Source: Pseudomonadota bacterium (GTDB taxonomy: Bacteria; Desulfobacterota; Desulfobacteria; Desulfobacterales; RPRI01). From it: 64,000 nucleotides of DNA. The notes beneath the pieces are model-generated. The model ran no database searches. It was not told where the DNA came from and worked only from the letters and a program-made list of their open reading frames with translations. The stretch is from NCBI GenBank assembly GCA_043825875.1, contig JBDRRF010000076.1:32001-96000 (forward strand), read 5' to 3'. Below are positions 28,221 to 36,732 of the stretch, piece by piece; position 1 is the stretch's first letter; every line of letters begins with the position of its first letter. Position numbers and translations under genes: made by a program.

Positions 28221-28307
28221 GCCGAAGTGGTGGAACTTGGTAGACACGCTATCTTGAGGGGGTAGTGTCCCACGGGCGTGCGGGTTCAAATCCCGCCTTC
28301 GGCACCA
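28221..28307 (+). tRNA. tRNA-Leu (anticodon GAG)
   Basis: GCCGAAG...CTTCGGC-ACCA acceptor; anticodon arm CTATC-TTGAGGG-GGTAG; long variable arm; T-loop TTCAAAT. Confidence 0.97.
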
Positions 28308-28318
28308 TATAATAAAAT

Positions 28319-28353
28319 AAGGGAGTTAGGTTATATAACCTGCTCCCTTTTTT
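28319..28353 (+). terminator. Rho-independent terminator after tRNA-Leu
   Basis: AAGGGAG-TTAGGTTA-TA-TAACCTG-CTCCCTT followed by T-run. Confidence 0.7.
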
Positions 28354-28391
28354 GTTTTTTAAAATTCTCCGGCTAAAGAATGGCTAAAGAT

Positions 28392-29348
28392 TTACATCCT
28401 GATTATTCCCAAAGAATGCAAATAACGCTGTGTAGTTGATATTTGGGTATGACCAAGCAACATCATAAGTTCAAAAAGGGGCTTTCCCTCATTTGCCCAA
28501 ACAGAAGCGCGTCTGTGGCGCAATCCGTGCCAATTCCACTTAGACTGGCCGAGTTCTTCCACTTTGTCCTCTAAGAACCTTGGATAAGCCGTCCACTCCT
28601 TAAATACCTTGCCCTTGCCCTCTGACTTGATAAATTCCGGTCTTGGGACCATTCTTGGTACTTTGTTAGAATTCCGACTTTTACGGGTATAAAGGACAAT
28701 GTAATCATCGTGGACATCCTTGTATTCAAGAGCAATGGCCTCATTGATCCGCGCAGCAGTATAATATACAAAATCTATTAGCACTCCTTGCTCTTGACTG
28801 CTAATAGATTTAACCGCTTCAATCATTTCCTCTGTAGGAATAAATTTGATTTTACTGTCTTCGGGAAGTCTTTTGATGCCGATGCAAGGATTTTTGAATT
28901 CAAAGCCGAGTTGATCGTTGGCGTAGTTAAATGTTGCCTTTAGAACCTTAATAAGTTGGTTAGGGCGAGAATTGCCGAGCTTTTCCCGATTGCAGCGCTT
29001 AATTTCGTTCAGAATTATATCTGATACCATTTTTTTGGTAACTTCCGAAGCAAAGATGTTTCCCCAGGTATTCAAAGCCTGTTTAAGCAGTCTTCGGTTA
29101 TCCCTGTAGTATTCTTTGTTTCTGGTAAGTTCAAGGACATCAAGCCGGTGATCAAAAAGCTCTTTTAGTTTAATGTCAATTTTTGGATTTCTTGCCTGCT
29201 CGTCAATTTCTTCCAGTTTTTTCCTTTCCGCTTTTGAACATTCCTGTCTTGTGTGATAAATCGCCTTGCTAAAATATCTTTGTCCTAAATACTGCCCGGA
29301 ATAAAAAAATCTTATGCCTTTTGATAATTTCCTGCGGTAGCATCCCAT
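28392..29348 (-). CDS. Phage-type tyrosine integrase
   Basis: Catalytic residues: ARINE, HGLRH, LGH, TTQRY. Confidence 0.92.
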   Translation of the reverse strand: MGCYRRKLSKGIRFFYSGQYLGQRYFSKAIYHTRQECSKAERKKLEEIDEQARNPKIDIKLKELFDHRLDVLELTRNKEYYRDNRRLLKQALNTWGNIFASEVTKKMVSDIILNEIKRCNREKLGNSRPNQLIKVLKATFNYANDQLGFEFKNPCIGIKRLPEDSKIKFIPTEEMIEAVKSISSQEQGVLIDFVYYTAARINEAIALEYKDVHDDYIVLYTRKSRNSNKVPRMVPRPEFIKSEGKGKVFKEWTAYPRFLEDKVEELGQSKWNWHGLRHRRASVWANEGKPLFELMMLLGHTQISTTQRYLHSLGIIRM

Positions 29349-29489
29349 TTCATCACCTCCTTTGACTTTTAAAATTATTAAGTTTAAAATGAACTATTAT
29401 TTGTGGGCTAATATTGGGTTGAGTAGTGTTCTTTAGTCTTTTTAAAATCAGGGTATAAAATTGAACGGGTCATTATTTGGAGGTATCCA

Positions 29490-29708
29490 ATGAAAGATCT
29501 GTTCATGACGGTTAATGAGGTTGCGGATTGTTTAGGCGTTAATGCCAAGACTATTTATAAATGGTCTAAGACAATTCCAGGCTACATTAAAATCGGTGGT
29601 AATGTCCTTTTTAACCGTCAAACATTCCTGAATGGAACTAAAGGGCTTCAATCAAAGCCTGCGGAAAAGTCAAGCTACGCCGGTGATGACCGGCATAACT
29701 TGACCTGA
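29490..29708 (+). CDS. Excisionase-like HTH protein
   Basis: MTVNEVADCLGVNAKTIYKW...IPGYIKIGG; divergent from the integrase. Confidence 0.85.
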   Translation: MKDLFMTVNEVADCLGVNAKTIYKWSKTIPGYIKIGGNVLFNRQTFLNGTKGLQSKPAEKSSYAGDDRHNLT

Positions 29709-29819
29709 CACTTGCTCCTGCCCGCTATTGGGTGGGAGCTTCTTTTTCAAGTAAGTGAATTATATAAATCAATAAAAGTGATATATCTTTAAGTTGGTCT
29801 AAAATATCATTTAAAATAT

Positions 29820-30005
29820 TCATTTCTTTTTCCCTCCGAAAATCTGATCAATGATAATTCCACCCCAGCCGGTAGTTGCCTGCTTTACTCCCTCTTTAGC
29901 AATCTCTCCTAAGCCCTTGGCAACTCCTTTAATAATCTTTACTTCTTCCTTTTTCTTTCCACCGTGCTGTTTGATATAAACATCAACATTTTTAAACTTA
30001 GCCAT
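29820..30005 (-). CDS. Small basic hypothetical protein
   Basis: 61 aa with AGGAGG RBS. Confidence 0.55.
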   Translation of the reverse strand: MAKFKNVDVYIKQHGGKKKEEVKIIKGVAKGLGEIAKEGVKQATTGWGGIIIDQIFGGKKK

Positions 30006-30082
30006 TTTGCGCCTCCTGTAAGTTATAGGTTAATCTTGATTATATTTTATATATGTCGCAAATGCTTGTAAATAAACGATAT

Positions 30083-30454
30083 TCAATGATTTTCCTTGAT
30101 TTTCTCCAAAGCTCTTATAGCTTCATCGCAGCCATTGCAAACAAACGCTTCAACATTGGTAATTTTATTTAAAGCGTCTATCCATTCTTTTTGGAACTCT
30201 GAAACACGACCGTTTTTAGTCCGCTTCATTTCAATGAATAACAACTTATCAGGTAGGCAAATAAGCAAATCCGGTAAGCCCGGATTAAGTCCAAGATTTT
30301 TGTTTGTCATCTTTTGTTTCCAGCTAGTTGTATAGGTAGAATTTGGAATTGAAGTAAATTTGTATCCTTTCAACCTCAAGTATTCCACAAAAGCTTTCTG
30401 CTCATTAAATTCGGTGGGAATTAAATTTGGTTTAAAAGTTTTGTAGTAATTCAT
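30083..30454 (-). CDS. VRR-NUC domain nuclease
   Basis: EFNEQ, GLNPGLPDL, FIEMKR, VSEFQKEW (PD-(D/E)xK). Confidence 0.85.
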   Translation of the reverse strand: MNYYKTFKPNLIPTEFNEQKAFVEYLRLKGYKFTSIPNSTYTTSWKQKMTNKNLGLNPGLPDLLICLPDKLLFIEMKRTKNGRVSEFQKEWIDALNKITNVEAFVCNGCDEAIRALEKIKENH

Positions 30455-30633
30455 ATTTTTAAAAAAACAGGAAGTAAAAAACAGTCAAAACGTGGCGTAA
30501 TAACTGCTTACTTCCTGATTTTTGCCACGTTAATTATACTTCTATCTTATCAAATAATTAATAATCTGTCAACCGTATGATATAATAAAATCAGATAGTT
30601 ATTAACTGCTCATTTTAAAAAAGGAGGTGTAAA

Positions 30634-30804
30634 ATGGTTAAAGTCTGTCCTACCTGCAACAACGTAATTACCCGCCCGTCATACTCTGACGACACGAATG
30701 TTTATTTTGTTTGCCCTCATTGCTCTTGTAAAGTAATGGCTCTTAAGGAATTTATGTTAAGTAATGAAATTATTGAAATGGAACACTATGCCGGGCATGC
30801 TTAA
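30634..30804 (+). CDS. 56-aa zinc-ribbon protein
   Basis: MVKVCPTCNN...FVCPHCSCK...; AAGGAGGT RBS; not in ORF track. Confidence 0.7.
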   Translation: MVKVCPTCNNVITRPSYSDDTNVYFVCPHCSCKVMALKEFMLSNEIIEMEHYAGHA

Positions 30805-30815
30805 AGGTGGTTAAA

Positions 30816-30980
30816 ATGGAAGATATACTACTTTACCAAAAACTTTTAGAAGTATGTCTAAGACACGGCGCTGAATTAACCTCTTTTGACGCCAAAACAA
30901 AAAAAATAGGAATAAAATGTAAGTTTGAGTGCATAGAAAATATAAACAAAGAAATATCAGAAATCTTAGATGAAGCCTAA
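30816..30980 (+). CDS. 54-aa hypothetical protein
   Basis: MEDILLYQKLLEVCLRHG...ILDEA*; AGGTGG RBS; followed by a terminator hairpin. Confidence 0.55.
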   Translation: MEDILLYQKLLEVCLRHGAELTSFDAKTKKIGIKCKFECIENINKEISEILDEA

Positions 30981-30985
30981 AAACA

Positions 30986-31016
30986 AAAGGATAAACGAAA
31001 TATGTTTATCCTTTTT
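30986..31016 (+). terminator. Terminator hairpin
   Basis: AAAGGATAAAC-loop-GTTTATCCTTTT. Confidence 0.7.
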
Positions 31017-31028
31017 ACTTTCAAATAG

Positions 31029-31065
31029 TTATCCACTTCCAAAAATATTTATTGTATGCTACTAT
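31029..31065 (+). promoter_or_regulatory. Promoter for the structured-RNA region, with adjacent DnaA-box-like motif
   Basis: TTATCCACT abutting TTCCAA-17 bp-TACTAT (TG-extended -10); second TTATTCACA at 31091-31099. Confidence 0.5.
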
Positions 31066-31267
31066 ATAGAAGTACTCTATTTTTTAAAAGTTATTCACAC
31101 CTTTTAAAAGAGTTGGCATGGGGAAATGCTACGAGGCAGTTGCTGGAGCTCTGCCTCACTCGTAGGTTAAGAATTTACATATTATAAAAGCTTTCAAACA
31201 AAAACCTTTTTTCTGCAAGGGAGTTCCGAAAGCTCTCCCTTAGAAACAAGGTTTTTGTTTTTTAAAA

Positions 31268-31453
31268 GCTATACAGTGGCGGAATAGCAAAACGCAATTA
31301 AGGACTGAGTAAAAGCGAATGCTCACGTTAACCTTCCCGACGCTCAGAGCAATAGCGCGCTTTATAATATCGGGCAAAACTCAAATGCAGGGTGACTATA
31401 CTATCGTTGCCGAAAGGTGAATGAAACGTTAGGCAAATCCCTGCCTGTATAGC
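31268..31453 (+). ncRNA. tRNA-like RNA with large internal insertions
   Basis: Closing stem GCTATACAG / CTGTATAGC; D-arm-like TGGCGGAATAGCAAAACGC; T-stem GCAGGG / CCCTGC with TG[39 nt]CAAAT loop. Confidence 0.55.
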
Positions 31454-31854
31454 TTTTAGCAAATAAATTGTTTCCTAAATCCGGTAAGGAACGGTGGCTG
31501 AATAAGCGGTAATTAGGTTCTAGAACTCAATTACTTTCCTTTCCGGATTTAAAAAGTAAAAAATCGCCAAATTTATTTTGGCGATTCTACAATTCATTTT
31601 TAAGCCCCGGATTATCGACTTAGGGGGTAATAATACTAAGCGGATAGAAATAAGGTTATTAGTTAAATGCCCTTTAAGAAGTTAAAGGTCATCTAACTGA
31701 CCCGACCCTGCCTTATTTCCAGCGTTATGCTTGTTCACTTAAGGGGATAGTGAAATGAGATACATAACTTTAAAAATGATATATATTTATAAAATGCTAA
31801 ACCCTCCCAAGCATTAACAATAACTAACAGGGGAGGGTCAGAATGTAACTAAAA

Positions 31855-32151
31855 TTAGATTAAATTAAATATTAGGATGTCTTTTCCTTTCTGCACTCTC
31901 TCATTTGACCCGGCGGCCATCATCCACATAAATCCGCCGTAGATGAATATGACAAGCGCCAAAGACCCGACAACTCCGAGCACGCCATTTATTATTTGGC
32001 CGATGAGTTGGTTGGGGGTGGTGGGGGTTGGCTCACCTGTCAAAGGATTATTCAAGCATACCTCACCGCTTCCAGTTTCACATTTAACTGCGTAACTAAT
32101 TTGAGGTAAAAGTAGAATCAAAAAAAATATTAATAAGATTATTTTCTTCAT
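31855..32151 (-). pseudogene. CPR/Patescibacteria-type pilin (TrbC/VirB2-like), C-terminally truncated
   Basis: Signal peptide, LNNPL, IINGVLGVVGSLALVIFIYGGFMWMMAAGSNERVQKGKDILI, then stops before the expected second TM helix. Confidence 0.65.
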
Positions 32152-32232
32152 ATATTAATTATATCATAAAAAAATAAAAACGGATAGTTTTTTAAAAAAA
32201 GCTATCCGTTTAAAATTTATAATGTGCAAAAT

Positions 32233-33348
32233 TTATGATTTATTGATCCAGAAATATATATCTGTTGGTTCCCTGGATATTGAAAATTCAATTCTGATAT
32301 TTTTGCTCCCGTAAATATCAAAACCATTAATTTTATTAAAGGAACTCCTCCACGTAGAAATACCATCAACATTATCTTTCTCTTTAAATTCTTTCAAAGA
32401 AAGATAAGAAATATGGTCGCCACTACTAATTACGCAAGCTTCTTTCCAGTCCCCGGATTTAGTAAGCCTAACTACTTTTGCCGGACCCCATTGAGATTCA
32501 TATTTCGCAACCGCCCTTTCCATCTCCAACCGCGCCAAACATTCTTCATACTCCGCGCGATAACGCGAAGTATATTGGCAGGCTTTGTTTAAAAGTCCGA
32601 CCTTTTGCGAGAGAAGATTAATGAGATTTTGCCGTTCCTCCACCGACATAATACCGCCGTCGGGGACTTGAATGGCTTGGGCTTTGGAATAATATTCTTC
32701 GCCAAGTGCTTCATTCTGTTTCTTTTGAGCTTCAGTATATTTATTCTTTTGACTAAACTTAACAGCAGTATCAAAAAACACAGTCTTTGAGTCTGTAGGT
32801 ATGTCTGTTTTATTCCCTGCCTGAAAATAATAATCGGCAACAGTTTCCTTGAGGGCAGGATTTATAGAAGCGGCAGACATAAAGTAGTTTTCCGCTGGTT
32901 TATGCTGGCCTTTTTCAAAAAGAGTTTTTCCCTCTGCAAACAATTCCGCACCAATGTCATTTTTAAGACCAGCTTGGTATTGGACTGCTTGACGGTAGAG
33001 CCCAACAGCACGGGACATATCACCTTTTGCTAAAGCCTGAGAACCGGCTTTTTTATATTCGGGGCCGATTTTATAACCATAATCAGACTTCAATTGTACG
33101 GCACTAGCGAAACGGTCTTTTGCATTTGAAAAATCACCCGTATTGATATAACAAATCCCAAGTTGGAATTGAGCCTCGGCATCCGTTGGTTTTTCTTTTA
33201 TTCGTTTATTAAGAAGCTCAATAGCCTGGGGAGACATCCCCGCCGACACAAAATCTTTGGCTTTATCAACATCGCCTGAACACCCGCAAAAAACAAATGA
33301 GATAATCACAAACAATAGATAACAACGAAACTTTCTATTAGACATCAT
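32233..33348 (-). CDS. TPR-repeat lipoprotein
   Basis: Lipobox-like FCGC; TPR-like helices (DAEAQFQLGICYINTGDFSNA); terminator hairpin at ~32177-32211. Confidence 0.75.
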   Translation of the reverse strand: MMSNRKFRCYLLFVIISFVFCGCSGDVDKAKDFVSAGMSPQAIELLNKRIKEKPTDAEAQFQLGICYINTGDFSNAKDRFASAVQLKSDYGYKIGPEYKKAGSQALAKGDMSRAVGLYRQAVQYQAGLKNDIGAELFAEGKTLFEKGQHKPAENYFMSAASINPALKETVADYYFQAGNKTDIPTDSKTVFFDTAVKFSQKNKYTEAQKKQNEALGEEYYSKAQAIQVPDGGIMSVEERQNLINLLSQKVGLLNKACQYTSRYRAEYEECLARLEMERAVAKYESQWGPAKVVRLTKSGDWKEACVISSGDHISYLSLKEFKEKDNVDGISTWRSSFNKINGFDIYGSKNIRIEFSISREPTDIYFWINKS

Positions 33349-33644
33349 TTCCCCCTCCTTGATTTATTAAACAGTCGATATTTAGTTGTCGATAAATATC
33401 TATATCTGATTTAAATTTCAACTAAAAAACAGCCATTATTGATTTTTGGGAACATTTTTCTATATAAAGATCTCAAATAAAGCTTTCAAGACCCGCCCTA
33501 CACAATTGTATACCATTGAATGGCAGCTGTTTTTCCAAAGAAATATTGGTATTTTAAATTCCGGGTCTATTTTATTATTGATATTTACATCACTTTTTGG
33601 TATAAAATGATTACATCATCCAAACACAAATAAGAGGTGTAAAA

Positions 33645-33917
33645 ATGTTATCTGAAACGCAACAAGAAAAGGTGCGGATAAACATCCAACTTTCTGCAGA
33701 GATTAAGGAGAAGCTATTCAAAGTCTCTTCCAGGCAGGGGAAAAAGGTTTCTGCTTTCGTAAGGGAGTCTATAGAGGAAAAATTGATCCAGCTCGAAAGG
33801 CAGGACTTTGAAAATCGTATGAAAACCGCCTATCAGGACTTAGCCGAAGAAAACATCAATATTTCTGAAGATTTCAAATTCTCTGACGCCGAAAATCTAC
33901 CAGAGGCCACCCCATGA
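33645..33917 (+). CDS. Ribbon-helix-helix antitoxin (MazE/EndoAI-like)
   Basis: VRINIQLS...VSAFVRESIEE, acidic C-terminus; overlaps the toxin start. Confidence 0.8.
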   Translation: MLSETQQEKVRINIQLSAEIKEKLFKVSSRQGKKVSAFVRESIEEKLIQLERQDFENRMKTAYQDLAEENINISEDFKFSDAENLPEATP

Positions 33918-34270
33918 CAACTTTTAACATTAAAAGAGGGGAAATCTATTATGCGTCCCTCGATCCGGTGGTGGGAAGTGAAACCGGAAAAACCCGGCCG
34001 GTGTTGATCATTCAAAATGATATCGGTAATCTATACTCACCTACGACTATCGTAGCAGTCATCACAGAATATTCCGAAAAAAAAGCAAATTATCCGATCT
34101 GCGTGCCTATTGGTATGGATACCGGTCTAAAAAAACATTCGATTGTTAATCTGTCGCAGATCCGCACCATTGACAACAGACGTTTGACAGGGCCGAAAAT
34201 CGCCGTTATTTCCAATGAGATCATGGGAAAGGTTGACACGGCACTGAAAAATAGCTTGGCTTTAAAATAG
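33914..34270 (+). CDS. mazF: MazF/PemK endoribonuclease toxin
   Basis: KRGEIYYASLDPVVGSETGKTRPVLIIQND, QIRTIDNRRL. Confidence 0.93.
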   Translation: MTTFNIKRGEIYYASLDPVVGSETGKTRPVLIIQNDIGNLYSPTTIVAVITEYSEKKANYPICVPIGMDTGLKKHSIVNLSQIRTIDNRRLTGPKIAVISNEIMGKVDTALKNSLALK

Positions 34271-34321
34271 AGAACGGAGTTTAAGTTAAATTCTACATTA
34301 TACGAAGGATGGTATCACTCC

Positions 34322-35617
34322 TTACGCTGCCTGCTCTTCATCTTTGTTTTCTGCTTTTTCAACTTCCCCATCGGCAACAGGCAGATATATATTAAATGTT
34401 GTACCTTCGTTAATTTTACTTGATACATCTATATATCCATTATGCTGTTTAATAATGCCGTAAGCGGATGAAAGCCCCAATCCCGTTCCTTTACCAAACT
34501 CCTTGGTTGTATAAAATGGTTCAAATATATTTGCTAAAACTTCACTATCCATACCGCATCCGTTATCACGAACAACAAGTTTTACATATTCTCCGGGTTT
34601 TATTTCTTTCATTTGCCGTTTATCACTCTCATGGATTACAATATCGGCTGTTTCAATGGCCAGAATACCTCCATTAGGCATAGCATCCCTTGCATTTGCC
34701 ACAAGATTCAGTAAGACTTGCTCTATCTGGTCCTTATCGGCCATAATATTTCGAACTGTCACTGCAGGCTTTATTTCAAGTAATATATCTTCGCCGATAA
34801 CCAGCTTTAACATCTCTGTCATATCTGTTATCAACTCGTTTATATTTATTTTATTAATTACCAGCAATTGCCTGCTGCTAAAAGCAAGCAACTGGTTTGT
34901 AATAGAAGATGCTTTCTCACCTAAACCTAATATAAGTTTAATACGTTCTCTTGAAGGATGATCTCTTGGAATATCCAACAGCGCCAGTTCACTAAAACCT
35001 AAAATACCGTTAAGCAGATTATTGAAATCATGGGCTACACCTCCTGCCAGCCTCCCGATTGATTCCATCTTATGCATTTGAATTAACTGGCCCTTTTGCA
35101 GATGCTGTTTTTCTTCAGTTTTTTCATTTATTGTATCAAAGGTTTCTTCCAATTCTTTCTTAGCCTGTTCGATCATGTTGTGCTGCGTCTGTATCTGATC
35201 TGTGACATCTTCTCCGTAACACAAAATGCCGGTTATCTTGCCCGTAATGTCTCTTAGCGGTATTGCATTATATTCTACAATTCTTCTTTCGCCCTTTTTA
35301 ACCAAAACAATATTTTGAAATTTTGTTGTCTCTGCATTGTTTATTTCATCTGTTATTAATTTATTAACGAAGATTTTTACTTTAGTTCGCATATCATCTG
35401 GAATAAACAGCCCAATAATATCCTTGCCGATAATTTCTTTCTCTTCATATCCGGCAACTTCACAGGCCTTTCTGTTTACAAGAACTACTTCCATATTAAG
35501 ATTTATTAAAATTAATTTTACTTCTTTAGTATCGAGACAGTTCTGTAACGAACTCTTTATGTGCATCAGCGCCAATTCGGCCAATTGGCTATATCTATCC
35601 CAATACTGATAATACAT
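34322..35617 (-). CDS. PAS-domain sensor histidine kinase
   Basis: PAS; GGVAHDFNNLL; NLVANARDAM; DNGCGM; FEPFYTTK; GTGLGLS; no receiver domain. Confidence 0.9.
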   Translation of the reverse strand: MYYQYWDRYSQLAELALMHIKSSLQNCLDTKEVKLILINLNMEVVLVNRKACEVAGYEEKEIIGKDIIGLFIPDDMRTKVKIFVNKLITDEINNAETTKFQNIVLVKKGERRIVEYNAIPLRDITGKITGILCYGEDVTDQIQTQHNMIEQAKKELEETFDTINEKTEEKQHLQKGQLIQMHKMESIGRLAGGVAHDFNNLLNGILGFSELALLDIPRDHPSRERIKLILGLGEKASSITNQLLAFSSRQLLVINKININELITDMTEMLKLVIGEDILLEIKPAVTVRNIMADKDQIEQVLLNLVANARDAMPNGGILAIETADIVIHESDKRQMKEIKPGEYVKLVVRDNGCGMDSEVLANIFEPFYTTKEFGKGTGLGLSSAYGIIKQHNGYIDVSSKINEGTTFNIYLPVADGEVEKAENKDEEQAA

Positions 35618-35700
35618 TGTATTTCCTTAAAACCGATCCGAGCAAATCTTATGAAAAGATCTCCCATAAAAGTTTCAGTGTTTCAGTTATGATCAGATCT

Positions 35701-36732
35701 TCACTTTATATTTTTCCCATAGTAATCAACATACCAGTTAACAAAATGTCTTATTCCTGTTTCAAGTAAAGTTTCAGGCTTAAAGCCAACATCTTTTATC
35801 AGATCATCAACATCGGCATATGTTGACACAACATCACCCGGTTGGAGATCAAGAAATTGAATTTCTGCTTTTTTCTCTAAAATAGTTTCTATGTTTTCTA
35901 TAAATTTCATAAGCTCAACAGGATTGTTGTTACCTATGTTATATATTTTATATTTTGCGTATGAGGTGCCAGGATCAGGGCTGTTGCCGCTCCAGTTTGG
36001 ATTCGGGTCAGGAACTTTTTTCATAATCCTTGCAACTCCTTCGATAATATCATCAATATATGTAAAATCACGAGTCATCTTTCCATGATTGAAAACCTCG
36101 ATAGGTTTTCCATTAAGGATTGCATCAGTAAAAAGAAAAAGAGCCATATCGGGTCGCCCCCATGGCCCGTAAACCGTAAAAAATCTCAGGCCTGTGCAAG
36201 GCAAACCATAGAGATGGCTGTATGAATGAGCCATGAGTTCATTTGCTTTCTTTGTGGCAGCATAAAGTGAAACAGGATGATCGACATTATGATGAACGGA
36301 AAAAGGCATTTTTGTGTTTGCCCCATAAACGGAACTTGATGAAGCAAAAACAAGATGCTGAACACTATTGTGTCTACAGCATTCAAGGATATTTGTAAAA
36401 CCGACTATATTGGAATCAATATATGAATAAGGGTTTTTCAATGAATATCTCACGCCAGCCTGTGCCGCAAGATTAACAACAACGTCAAACTTATTATTTT
36501 TAAAAACTTCTTGCAAAGCATCCCTATCTGAAATGTCTGCTTTTAAGAATGCAAAGTTTTTATAAGACAATAGTTGAGCAAGCCTGGATTCTTTAAGACC
36601 AACATCATAATAAGAATTCATATTATCAATACCGGTTACATTAATCCCTTCATTAAGCAATCTTAAAGATAAATGATAACCGATAAACCCGGCAGCACCT
36701 GTAACAAGAACATCTTTAATACTAATATCCAT
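35701..36732 (-). CDS. NAD-dependent epimerase (UDP-glucuronate 4-epimerase type)
   Basis: [33 protein letters not shown]. Confidence 0.93.

Follow-up and report, generated by a model that had tools for sequence, protein, structure and literature searches.

Prophage remnants at tRNA genes are common. Defective prophages of the lambdoid type keep an integrase gene facing the 3' end of the tRNA, a divergent excisionase (xis) gene and arm-like repeats, together with a few phage accessory genes, and have lost their morphogenesis genes. Phage satellites, which include P4-like elements, phage-inducible chromosomal islands (PICI) and capsid-forming PICI (cf-PICI), are small, integrate at tRNA genes and also carry an integrase and an xis-like gene; their hallmarks are a primase or replicase and a gene that exploits the helper phage (a capsid-size, small terminase or capsid gene). 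We analyzed a locus at a tRNA-Leu gene in a 64,000-nucleotide stretch of DNA (the window; contig JBDRRF010000076.1, positions 32,001 to 96,000, of assembly GCA_043825875.1) from a bacterium of the order Desulfobacterales, phylum Desulfobacterota. An original prediction, made from the sequence alone, had proposed here a minimal satellite-like element of ~5 kb with cargo resembling DNA of the Patescibacteria (candidate phyla radiation, CPR). We favor another account, to which we give a probability of about 0.6: the locus is the left end of a decayed temperate prophage at tRNA-Leu, from a phage whose host was probably a Desulfobacterota bacterium, and a 0.35-kb piece of CPR DNA was captured at its broken edge.

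The phage-type left end at tRNA-Leu

The genome to which the window belongs measures 4.77 Mb and is 99.8% complete and 0.8% contaminated. The tRNA-Leu(GAG) gene (28221-28307, + strand), detected by ARAGORN and Rfam, is the integration target and lies on the attL side. In two genomes of the same genus, the corresponding site was found to be empty, as the original prediction had suggested checking: the conserved epimerase gene, which is at 35701-36732 in the window, lies 337 bp (genome G011) or 70 bp (G012) from the tRNA, so that about 7.4 kb in the window is extra. The DNA missing from these relatives runs from ~28310 to 35700 and is a mosaic, with a foreign composition up to ~33.6 kb. Of the span first proposed (28285-33497), the integration on the tRNA side was retained, but the right limit was not.

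Behind the tRNA, an element-type terminator hairpin (28319-28354, +) replaces that of the relatives; G008, G011 and G012 share a different tRNA terminator hairpin, which the window lacks. Tandem 9-bp repeats follow at 28371-28390 (+), then the gene of an intact 318-aa tyrosine integrase (28392-29348, −; PF00589, phrog_1) with all catalytic residues present (R200, K223, H274, R277, H300 and Y309), and that of an excisionase-like helix-turn-helix protein (29490-29708, +; PF12728, phrog_66) with a terminator at 29714-29739. The integrase, excisionase and direct repeats had all been named in the original prediction. By these sequence features (integrase, excisionase, arm-like repeats and swapped tRNA terminator), the left end is an attL-type junction. 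The tandem repeat is single-copy in the window and in the genome. In a related element (G034), an identical 19-mer occupies the corresponding position, which supports the idea of arm sites, and G202 and G762 have similar tandem repeats, suggesting that the repeats are likely integrase arm-binding sites. The exact 19-mer was also seen in two viral contigs, in both cases within unrelated coding genes, and these were discarded as chance matches.

The integrase was only 27% identical to its best match among GenBank phages and represents an uncatalogued family. Searches of 300 other genomes of the host order and of 400 of the phylum found its family in two and one, respectively (G034, G202 and G762), and in all three it faces the 3' end of a tRNA gene (Arg, Lys, Thr) with tandem repeats between. 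Relatives reached up to 72% identity; among the 120 listed, five were organism-named, three from Desulfobacterota/Deltaproteobacteria, one from Bacteroidota and one from Latescibacterota, with no CPR among them, and the 66% cluster includes a Desulfobulbaceae protein. A pattern search of viral contigs gave three distant loci. Around the related integrase at tRNA-Arg in G034 (contig C39; L090 1-11715), we noted two ATPases, one of them coupling-protein-like and the other a PDC-S06 defence candidate, and a second recombinase.

At the other end, no attR with the displaced 3' part of the tRNA was found at the locus, and neither a second arm site nor a displaced tRNA terminator was found in the window or locus. 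Because attR is missing, we regard the element as a remnant rather than an intact prophage. The 11/13 match to the tRNA T-arm that had been proposed as the right end is present (33485-33497, +), but its meaning as attR was rejected, since 0.09-0.13 such matches are expected per island length for the T-arm core, which is chance level. Of 300 random 7.4-kb segments of the genome, 220 contained at least one 11/13 match to the 3' half of the tRNA. An imperfect inverted repeat of ~13 bp at 33425-33535 surrounds the T-arm-like word, possibly as a small repeat element. In G013, this tRNA-Leu is occupied by a different element, which retains a 52-bp attR; this unrelated 13-kb integrative element (contig C269; L024 2757-15937) carries an integrase and xis of its own, as well as an ArdC-like gene and a 585-aa open reading frame (ORF) whose product we take to be polymerase-like. 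In G008, the nearest relative, with flanks 97% identical, the native tRNA terminator is followed by an insertion sequence-like repeat and then the contig end (L002 1-330).

The middle of the element is phage-like, to judge from its genes. The VRR-NUC nuclease of phage type (123 aa; 30083-30454, −) was confirmed by PF08774 and phrog_824. VRR-NUC, xis and integrase genes stand in the order of the window on L143, a 2-kb metagenome contig (66, 52 and 67% aa identity), and again in G611, a 42.7-kb phage rated 100% complete that has a terminase (44, 36 and 38%). Phage G611 also has ArdC-like, Replic_Relax-like and coupling-protein-like genes, and in its attP-like site (L254 6338-6470) lies the 5' half of a tRNA-Thr(CGT) that points the same way as the integrase, opposite to the layout in the window. 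A 61-aa orphan ORF with a ribosome-binding site and no family match (29820-30005, −) was absent from the earlier list of small ORFs; G611 has a small ORF at the equivalent position, with a similarity (E 0.055) that does not show homology. The two tiny ORFs already listed, a zinc-ribbon-like one of 56 aa and an orphan of 54-57 aa (30634-30980, +), were confirmed and sit behind a promoter-like site divergent from VRR-NUC. Profile searches assigned the small ORFs to no protein family; the 56-aa ORF had a sub-cut-off match to Ogr/Delta (E 0.016).

Ten ORFs at the locus were profile-scanned. Among them, no terminase, portal or capsid gene for morphogenesis, no primase, replicase, capsid-size or small terminase gene, and no relaxase, coupling protein or other conjugation family was detected, in keeping with the earlier statement that capsid, replication and conjugation genes are missing. 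The stub therefore differs from P4-like elements, PICI and cf-PICI in having none of their primase/replicase, capsid-size, small terminase or capsid genes and no attR, and the proposal of a working minimal satellite is unsupported because neither an attR nor a satellite gene was found. It differs from the defective prophages in its integrase family and in the gene fragment from another phylum at its broken edge. The host genome has two CRISPR arrays with 23 inter-repeat pieces, none of which matched the fetched loci.

A Patescibacteria pilin fragment at the broken edge

According to the available text of PMC12102498, VirB2-like pilins are widespread in Patescibacteria, and the type IV secretion systems (T4SS) of these bacteria mostly lack a relaxase. 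The 5' part of such a pilin gene lies at 31869-32151 (−). The original prediction had spoken of a pilin fragment, and the truncated protein indeed matched PF18895, at 26.7 bits against a cut-off of 26.6. All nine organism-named relatives (of 61) are Patescibacteria, the best being a Parcubacteria pilin with 79% aa identity, and the fragment falls in a clade with three named CPR pilins with support of 95/81, in a tree drawn without a non-CPR outgroup. The best hits of the ORFs are thus not all deltaproteobacterial. At the DNA level, identity to CPR genes was 81-83% over 142-170 bp, and 127 of 301 CPR genomes matched the query 29750-32235; the pilin and its promoter accounted for nearly all of the matches listed.

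The matches to CPR DNA stop at 31869-31871, and the 98-aa ORF continues to 31855 within foreign sequence. The pilin is cut just before a Trp (W95) that is conserved in 10 aligned relatives, on the side of the second helix; the second hydrophobic helix is therefore lost, and the truncated protein would probably not form a pilus by itself. Upstream of the start codon (32152-32225, −), the layout is that found before CPR pilins, with a hairpin, a T-tract, an extended -10 element and the ATG six bases later, without a ribosome-binding site, and it has collinear 80-85% matches in CPR loci (L108 and L116). The hairpin could alternatively be the terminator of the adjoining tetratricopeptide repeat (TPR) gene. 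The CPR-derived piece extends from 31869 to ~32225, about 0.35 kb, as the stop codon of the TPR gene follows at 32233. Hence the resemblance to CPR or CPR-phage DNA that had been claimed for 30.0-32.2 kb held for this piece, but not for 30.0-31.87 kb, which has phage relatives and no convincing CPR match.

A pilin of this type was present in none of 300 other genomes of the host order, none of 50,697 GenBank phages, none of 72,556 plasmids and none of 141 fetched VRR-NUC loci, and nothing significant was found among solved structures. A pilin scan of 11 of the 64 parts of the genome collection yielded a single locus, which was used only as an entry to CPR genomes. When the host was compared with ~150 kb of CPR loci (not genome-wide), the other matches were two conserved housekeeping genes at 65-72%. 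The fragment thus shares sequence family and promoter type with the Patescibacteria pilins but is cut before the second helix and stands alone, without T4SS genes, on a non-CPR chromosome. The scarcity of relaxases in Patescibacteria T4SS speaks against routine conjugative delivery. In two CPR genomes (G374 and G467; L256 and L257), several 5'-truncated pilin copies lie a few kb from the intact gene, suggesting that the pilin locus recombines frequently in CPR genomes.

The tRNA-shaped RNA and neighboring features

The block between the small ORFs and the pilin was predicted to be structured and non-coding, and folding gave a z-score of -5.5. Within it lies a tRNA-shaped RNA gene (31270-31451, +; folding z -3.5), which has a 7-bp acceptor, a D-arm, two long arms replacing the anticodon arm, a 6-bp T-stem and no CCA. 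The conserved T-loop insert of the RNA (31392-31439) is framed by GTGACTATAC and GGCAAATC. ARAGORN and Rfam did not detect the RNA and it does not satisfy RF00005; it has neither an anticodon arm with a 7-nt loop nor a canonical T-loop, and it cannot decode.

We looked for relatives by pattern scans of viral contigs. A first pattern, which gave 106 loci, was abandoned because these were mostly chance matches in coding DNA; two further scans gave 53 and 51 loci. After removal of duplicates and of matches at locus ends, 99 distinct matches were kept, the window included; 63 had the full 6-bp T-stem, and 55 had an upstream D-loop word that had been picked regardless of pairing. Of these 55 members, 49 close the acceptor in 7 of 7 positions, using 47 different 5' strands. 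Acceptor cells were paired in 95% of cases, compared with 53% after shuffling (maximum 60% in 1000 shufflings), relatedness being uncontrolled in this comparison. Members have a 13-bp acceptor/T stack, a variable middle and T-loop inserts of 21-78 nt (equal to the range searched), and CCA follows the RNA in 2 of 55. ARAGORN found no true tRNA in the 53 loci of the first of these scans, and Rfam gave no match in 20 of the 53. These data show a well-supported RNA family with strong covariation that is absent from Rfam. One member lies 1.7 kb from a VRR-NUC gene (58%) in a 34-kb phage. Most members have a D-loop GG that is missing from the RNA of the window, which may be a degenerate copy. There was no significant DNA-level match in GenBank phages, and the motif was found in 0 of the 21 nearest CPR genomes, a comparison of low power. 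Six phage RNAs (L036, L037, L308, L287, L314 and L326) have the same shell and 6-bp T-stem with no T-loop insert, and are likely a sister group.

Among described RNAs, the YrlA-type Y RNAs of bacteria and phages also mimic tRNA with D and T arms and occur in phages (PMC4201824, in its available text). That source characterizes them by a Ro60 (TROVE) gene within ~4 kb and a GNCGAAN0-1G motif near the 5' end. The genome has no PF05731 match for Ro60 (the control matched 2 of 14), and the only word fitting the motif is in the tetraloop hairpin of the 3' insert, not near the 5' end; with no Rfam match either, a Y RNA identity was rejected. The RNA differs from YrlA also in its normal tRNA arm order and T-loop insert. 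The species 1 RNA of phage T4 (rnaC) and other phage tRNA-scaffold RNAs, compared by description only, similarly have tRNA ends framing a non-tRNA middle; the present family differs in its 13-bp stack, its conserved T-loop insert, the rarity of CCA and the usual lack of a nearby tRNA. We found no description of this family in the literature that was accessible, mainly without subscription papers. By its sequence, the RNA would most likely be a stable scaffold of tRNA fold, or a decoy for host enzymes that target tRNA.

Upstream of the RNA gene, two DnaA-box-like words flank a promoter-like stretch (31029-31099, +). Of the two TTATCCAC boxes reported beside this promoter, the copy at 31029 is exact, but the second, at 31091, has a mismatch, and one-mismatch matches to TTATCCAC were about as frequent across the window (55) as expected (57.6). 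We found no GTTATCCAC in the 106 kb of CPR loci examined, whereas phage loci contained 13 copies in 362 kb (3.6 per 100 kb, compared with 0.55 in shuffled sequence); the boxes thus indicate phage and not CPR DNA. A cluster of stem-loops precedes the RNA gene (31100-31262, +; z -2.0 and -4.8; no Rfam family) and further ones extend up to the pilin break (31476-31868, +; z -4.6, -2.2 and -2.3); the latter segment had no convincing match in 301 CPR genomes or in GenBank phages. Between two long hairpins, at 31754-31816, lies a 20-codon ORF with a purine-rich leader, a layout like that of a putative leader peptide or type I toxin-antitoxin system. No RNA run was listed among the public runs containing the stretch, and two RNA runs of the same study gave zero coverage of the non-coding block, which is no evidence either way on expression.

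Right of the pilin lie accessory genes of the host genus. The full-length TPR gene (32233-33348, −) encodes, as predicted, a TPR protein with a lipoprotein-like N-terminus; it has an 82% DNA match in G011 and a paralog in the same genome (contig C84) with 56% aa identity up to the C-terminus. Between the stub and the epimerase gene are a mazEF pair and a histidine kinase gene (33645-35617). The mazEF region has 82-87% matches in eight genomes of the same genus, and the kinase gene is near the epimerase in G016 also. A broken mazEF copy lies behind tRNA-Thr (G000:C24 14090-14540) and the TPR paralog beside tRNA-Glu/Lys (G000:C84 63000-66061), suggesting that these accessory genes recur at tRNA hotspots.

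Origin and meaning of the locus

In the account we favor, a temperate phage would have integrated at tRNA-Leu in the manner of lambda, supplying the 3' half of the tRNA and a terminator; its right part with attR would later have been lost, locking the stub in place. With attR missing, the integrase and excisionase are likely unable to excise it. CPR DNA would likely have been taken up as free DNA from the environment and joined without homology at the broken edge by a one-off illegitimate recombination, perhaps in the same step in which the remainder of the prophage was deleted. ComEC is present in the host, and no Ku was found in it. Several points weigh against this account. Neither a microhomology nor a donor sequence showing how the pilin joined is available. 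The integrase-xis pair was found in just 2 of the 141 fetched VRR-NUC loci (the remaining 139, many of them short, were without it), one of the two pairs being on the 2-kb contig L143. The elements of G034 and G202 have defence-like genes after xis, so the integrase family is not restricted to phages, and the present element could be a small island of non-phage type that holds phage genes. The integrase also occurred in 1 of 301 CPR genomes, on a 3.7-kb contig. The origin of 31450-31868 could not be assigned, as Markov scores tie between CPR and phage; the Markov classification is weak, and it is circular for the pilin because the CPR training loci were chosen by pilin. Finally, contig support for the junctions comes from a sequencing run that is probably the genome's own source; this support is strong but not independent.

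The pilin fragment adjoins phage DNA inside the foreign region, and the incoming phage or island might already have carried it from a Patescibacteria cell, shuttling between CPR and a neighbor or host. VRR-NUC lacks a ribosome-binding site and the VRR-NUC promoter of L143 is of the same style as that of the pilin; in related elements, a coupling-protein-like ATPase and a weak match to Replic_Relax were seen, and the one CPR genome with the integrase fits as well. We nevertheless consider such a shuttle unlikely, given that no such pilin was found in the VRR-NUC loci, GenBank phages and plasmids searched, that none of the five named integrase relatives is CPR, and that the RNA motif was missing, at low power, from the nearest CPR genomes. 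An intact satellite-like or mobilizable element reaching from the tRNA to 33497, self-excised and then helper-packaged or transferred, could draw on the intact integrase and xis, the conserved arm-like repeats, the foreign composition to ~33.6 kb and the small islands of G034 and G202 that have the same integrase family. This is very unlikely in view of the chance-level match at 33485, at a tRNA where the G013 element keeps its attR, and of the missing second arm site, displaced terminator, and primase, replicase, relaxase, capsid-size and terminase genes; its cargo, moreover, occurred in no other genome or public run searched.

A CPR chromosome as the source of the entire block at 30.0-32.2 kb is also very improbable, even though the block is AT-rich, adjoins the pilin and in its last 400 bp scores equally CPR-like and phage-like. 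When two candidates were scored per genome, 30980-31868 gave only AT-rich matches of 27-67 bp in 14 of the 301 CPR genomes, the best inside a coding gene, and a CPR origin of the non-coding block was rejected on this and on the result with the RNA motif; VRR-NUC is linked to the integrase elsewhere, and the pilin is cut on the side facing the block. Misassembly was raised as a concern in the original prediction, and the genome is indeed a metagenome bin, with only one public run, a groundwater run, containing the stretch. A chimera of the host with a co-sampled CPR genome nevertheless seems highly improbable. In that run, all of 28280-36500 lies on a single contig of 18,922 bp, with zero differences and at a depth of 27.7, compared with 26.7 and 29 in the left flanks, and since one contig at host depth carries all the parts, a chimera would need a CPR genome of equal depth, of which there is no sign. 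No other contig of the run covers the conserved part of the pilin or continues it at a likeness of at least 80%, the bin contamination is 0.79%, and the contigs listed for the run showed no joint into a circle.

Taken together, these data suggest that the locus likely records a one-off capture of DNA between distant bacteria, and not a working new mobile element. As a whole, the element would be an ordinary decayed prophage end, not shown to be a new system; what is new here is the fragment from another phylum and an RNA family missing from the catalogues, not a satellite. Of the DNA transfer from an episymbiont or its phage that was first proposed, the presence of CPR DNA in a non-CPR chromosome stands, whereas the vehicle and the extent do not. 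In the available text of PMC12455944, groundwater Patescibacteria exchange genes mostly among themselves; one donor belonged to the Desulfobacterota, and nine transfers went to DPANN archaea. In that of PMC10811913, links between CPR and hosts are rarely documented. No description of a Desulfobacterota genome with a piece of a CPR pilin gene was found in mainly non-subscription literature, and the supplementary tables of PMC12455944 may list such transfers. In the available account of PMC12455944, transfers run mainly into Patescibacteria or to DPANN archaea; set against this, the CPR gene piece described here, which keeps its promoter and lies at host depth in a nearly complete genome from outside the CPR, is a clean trace of transfer the opposite way.

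The hosts of most Patescibacteria are unknown. A partnership of the CPR lineage with this host (episymbiosis) is possible, and one fragment cannot separate a host link from uptake of free DNA. It seems doubtful that DNA passes from a Patescibacteria episymbiont to its Desulfobacterota host by way of a temperate phage family or through direct contact of the cells, accompanied by a member of a new class of phage RNAs that retain a tRNA shell and have gained a conserved additional domain in the T-loop. If transfer from episymbiont to host were true, the pilin fragment would name the host of an uncultured CPR lineage. We suggest CPR fragments in other genomes as a screen for close neighbors or hosts. 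The tRNA-shaped RNA family, in turn, is directly testable as a decoy or scaffold.

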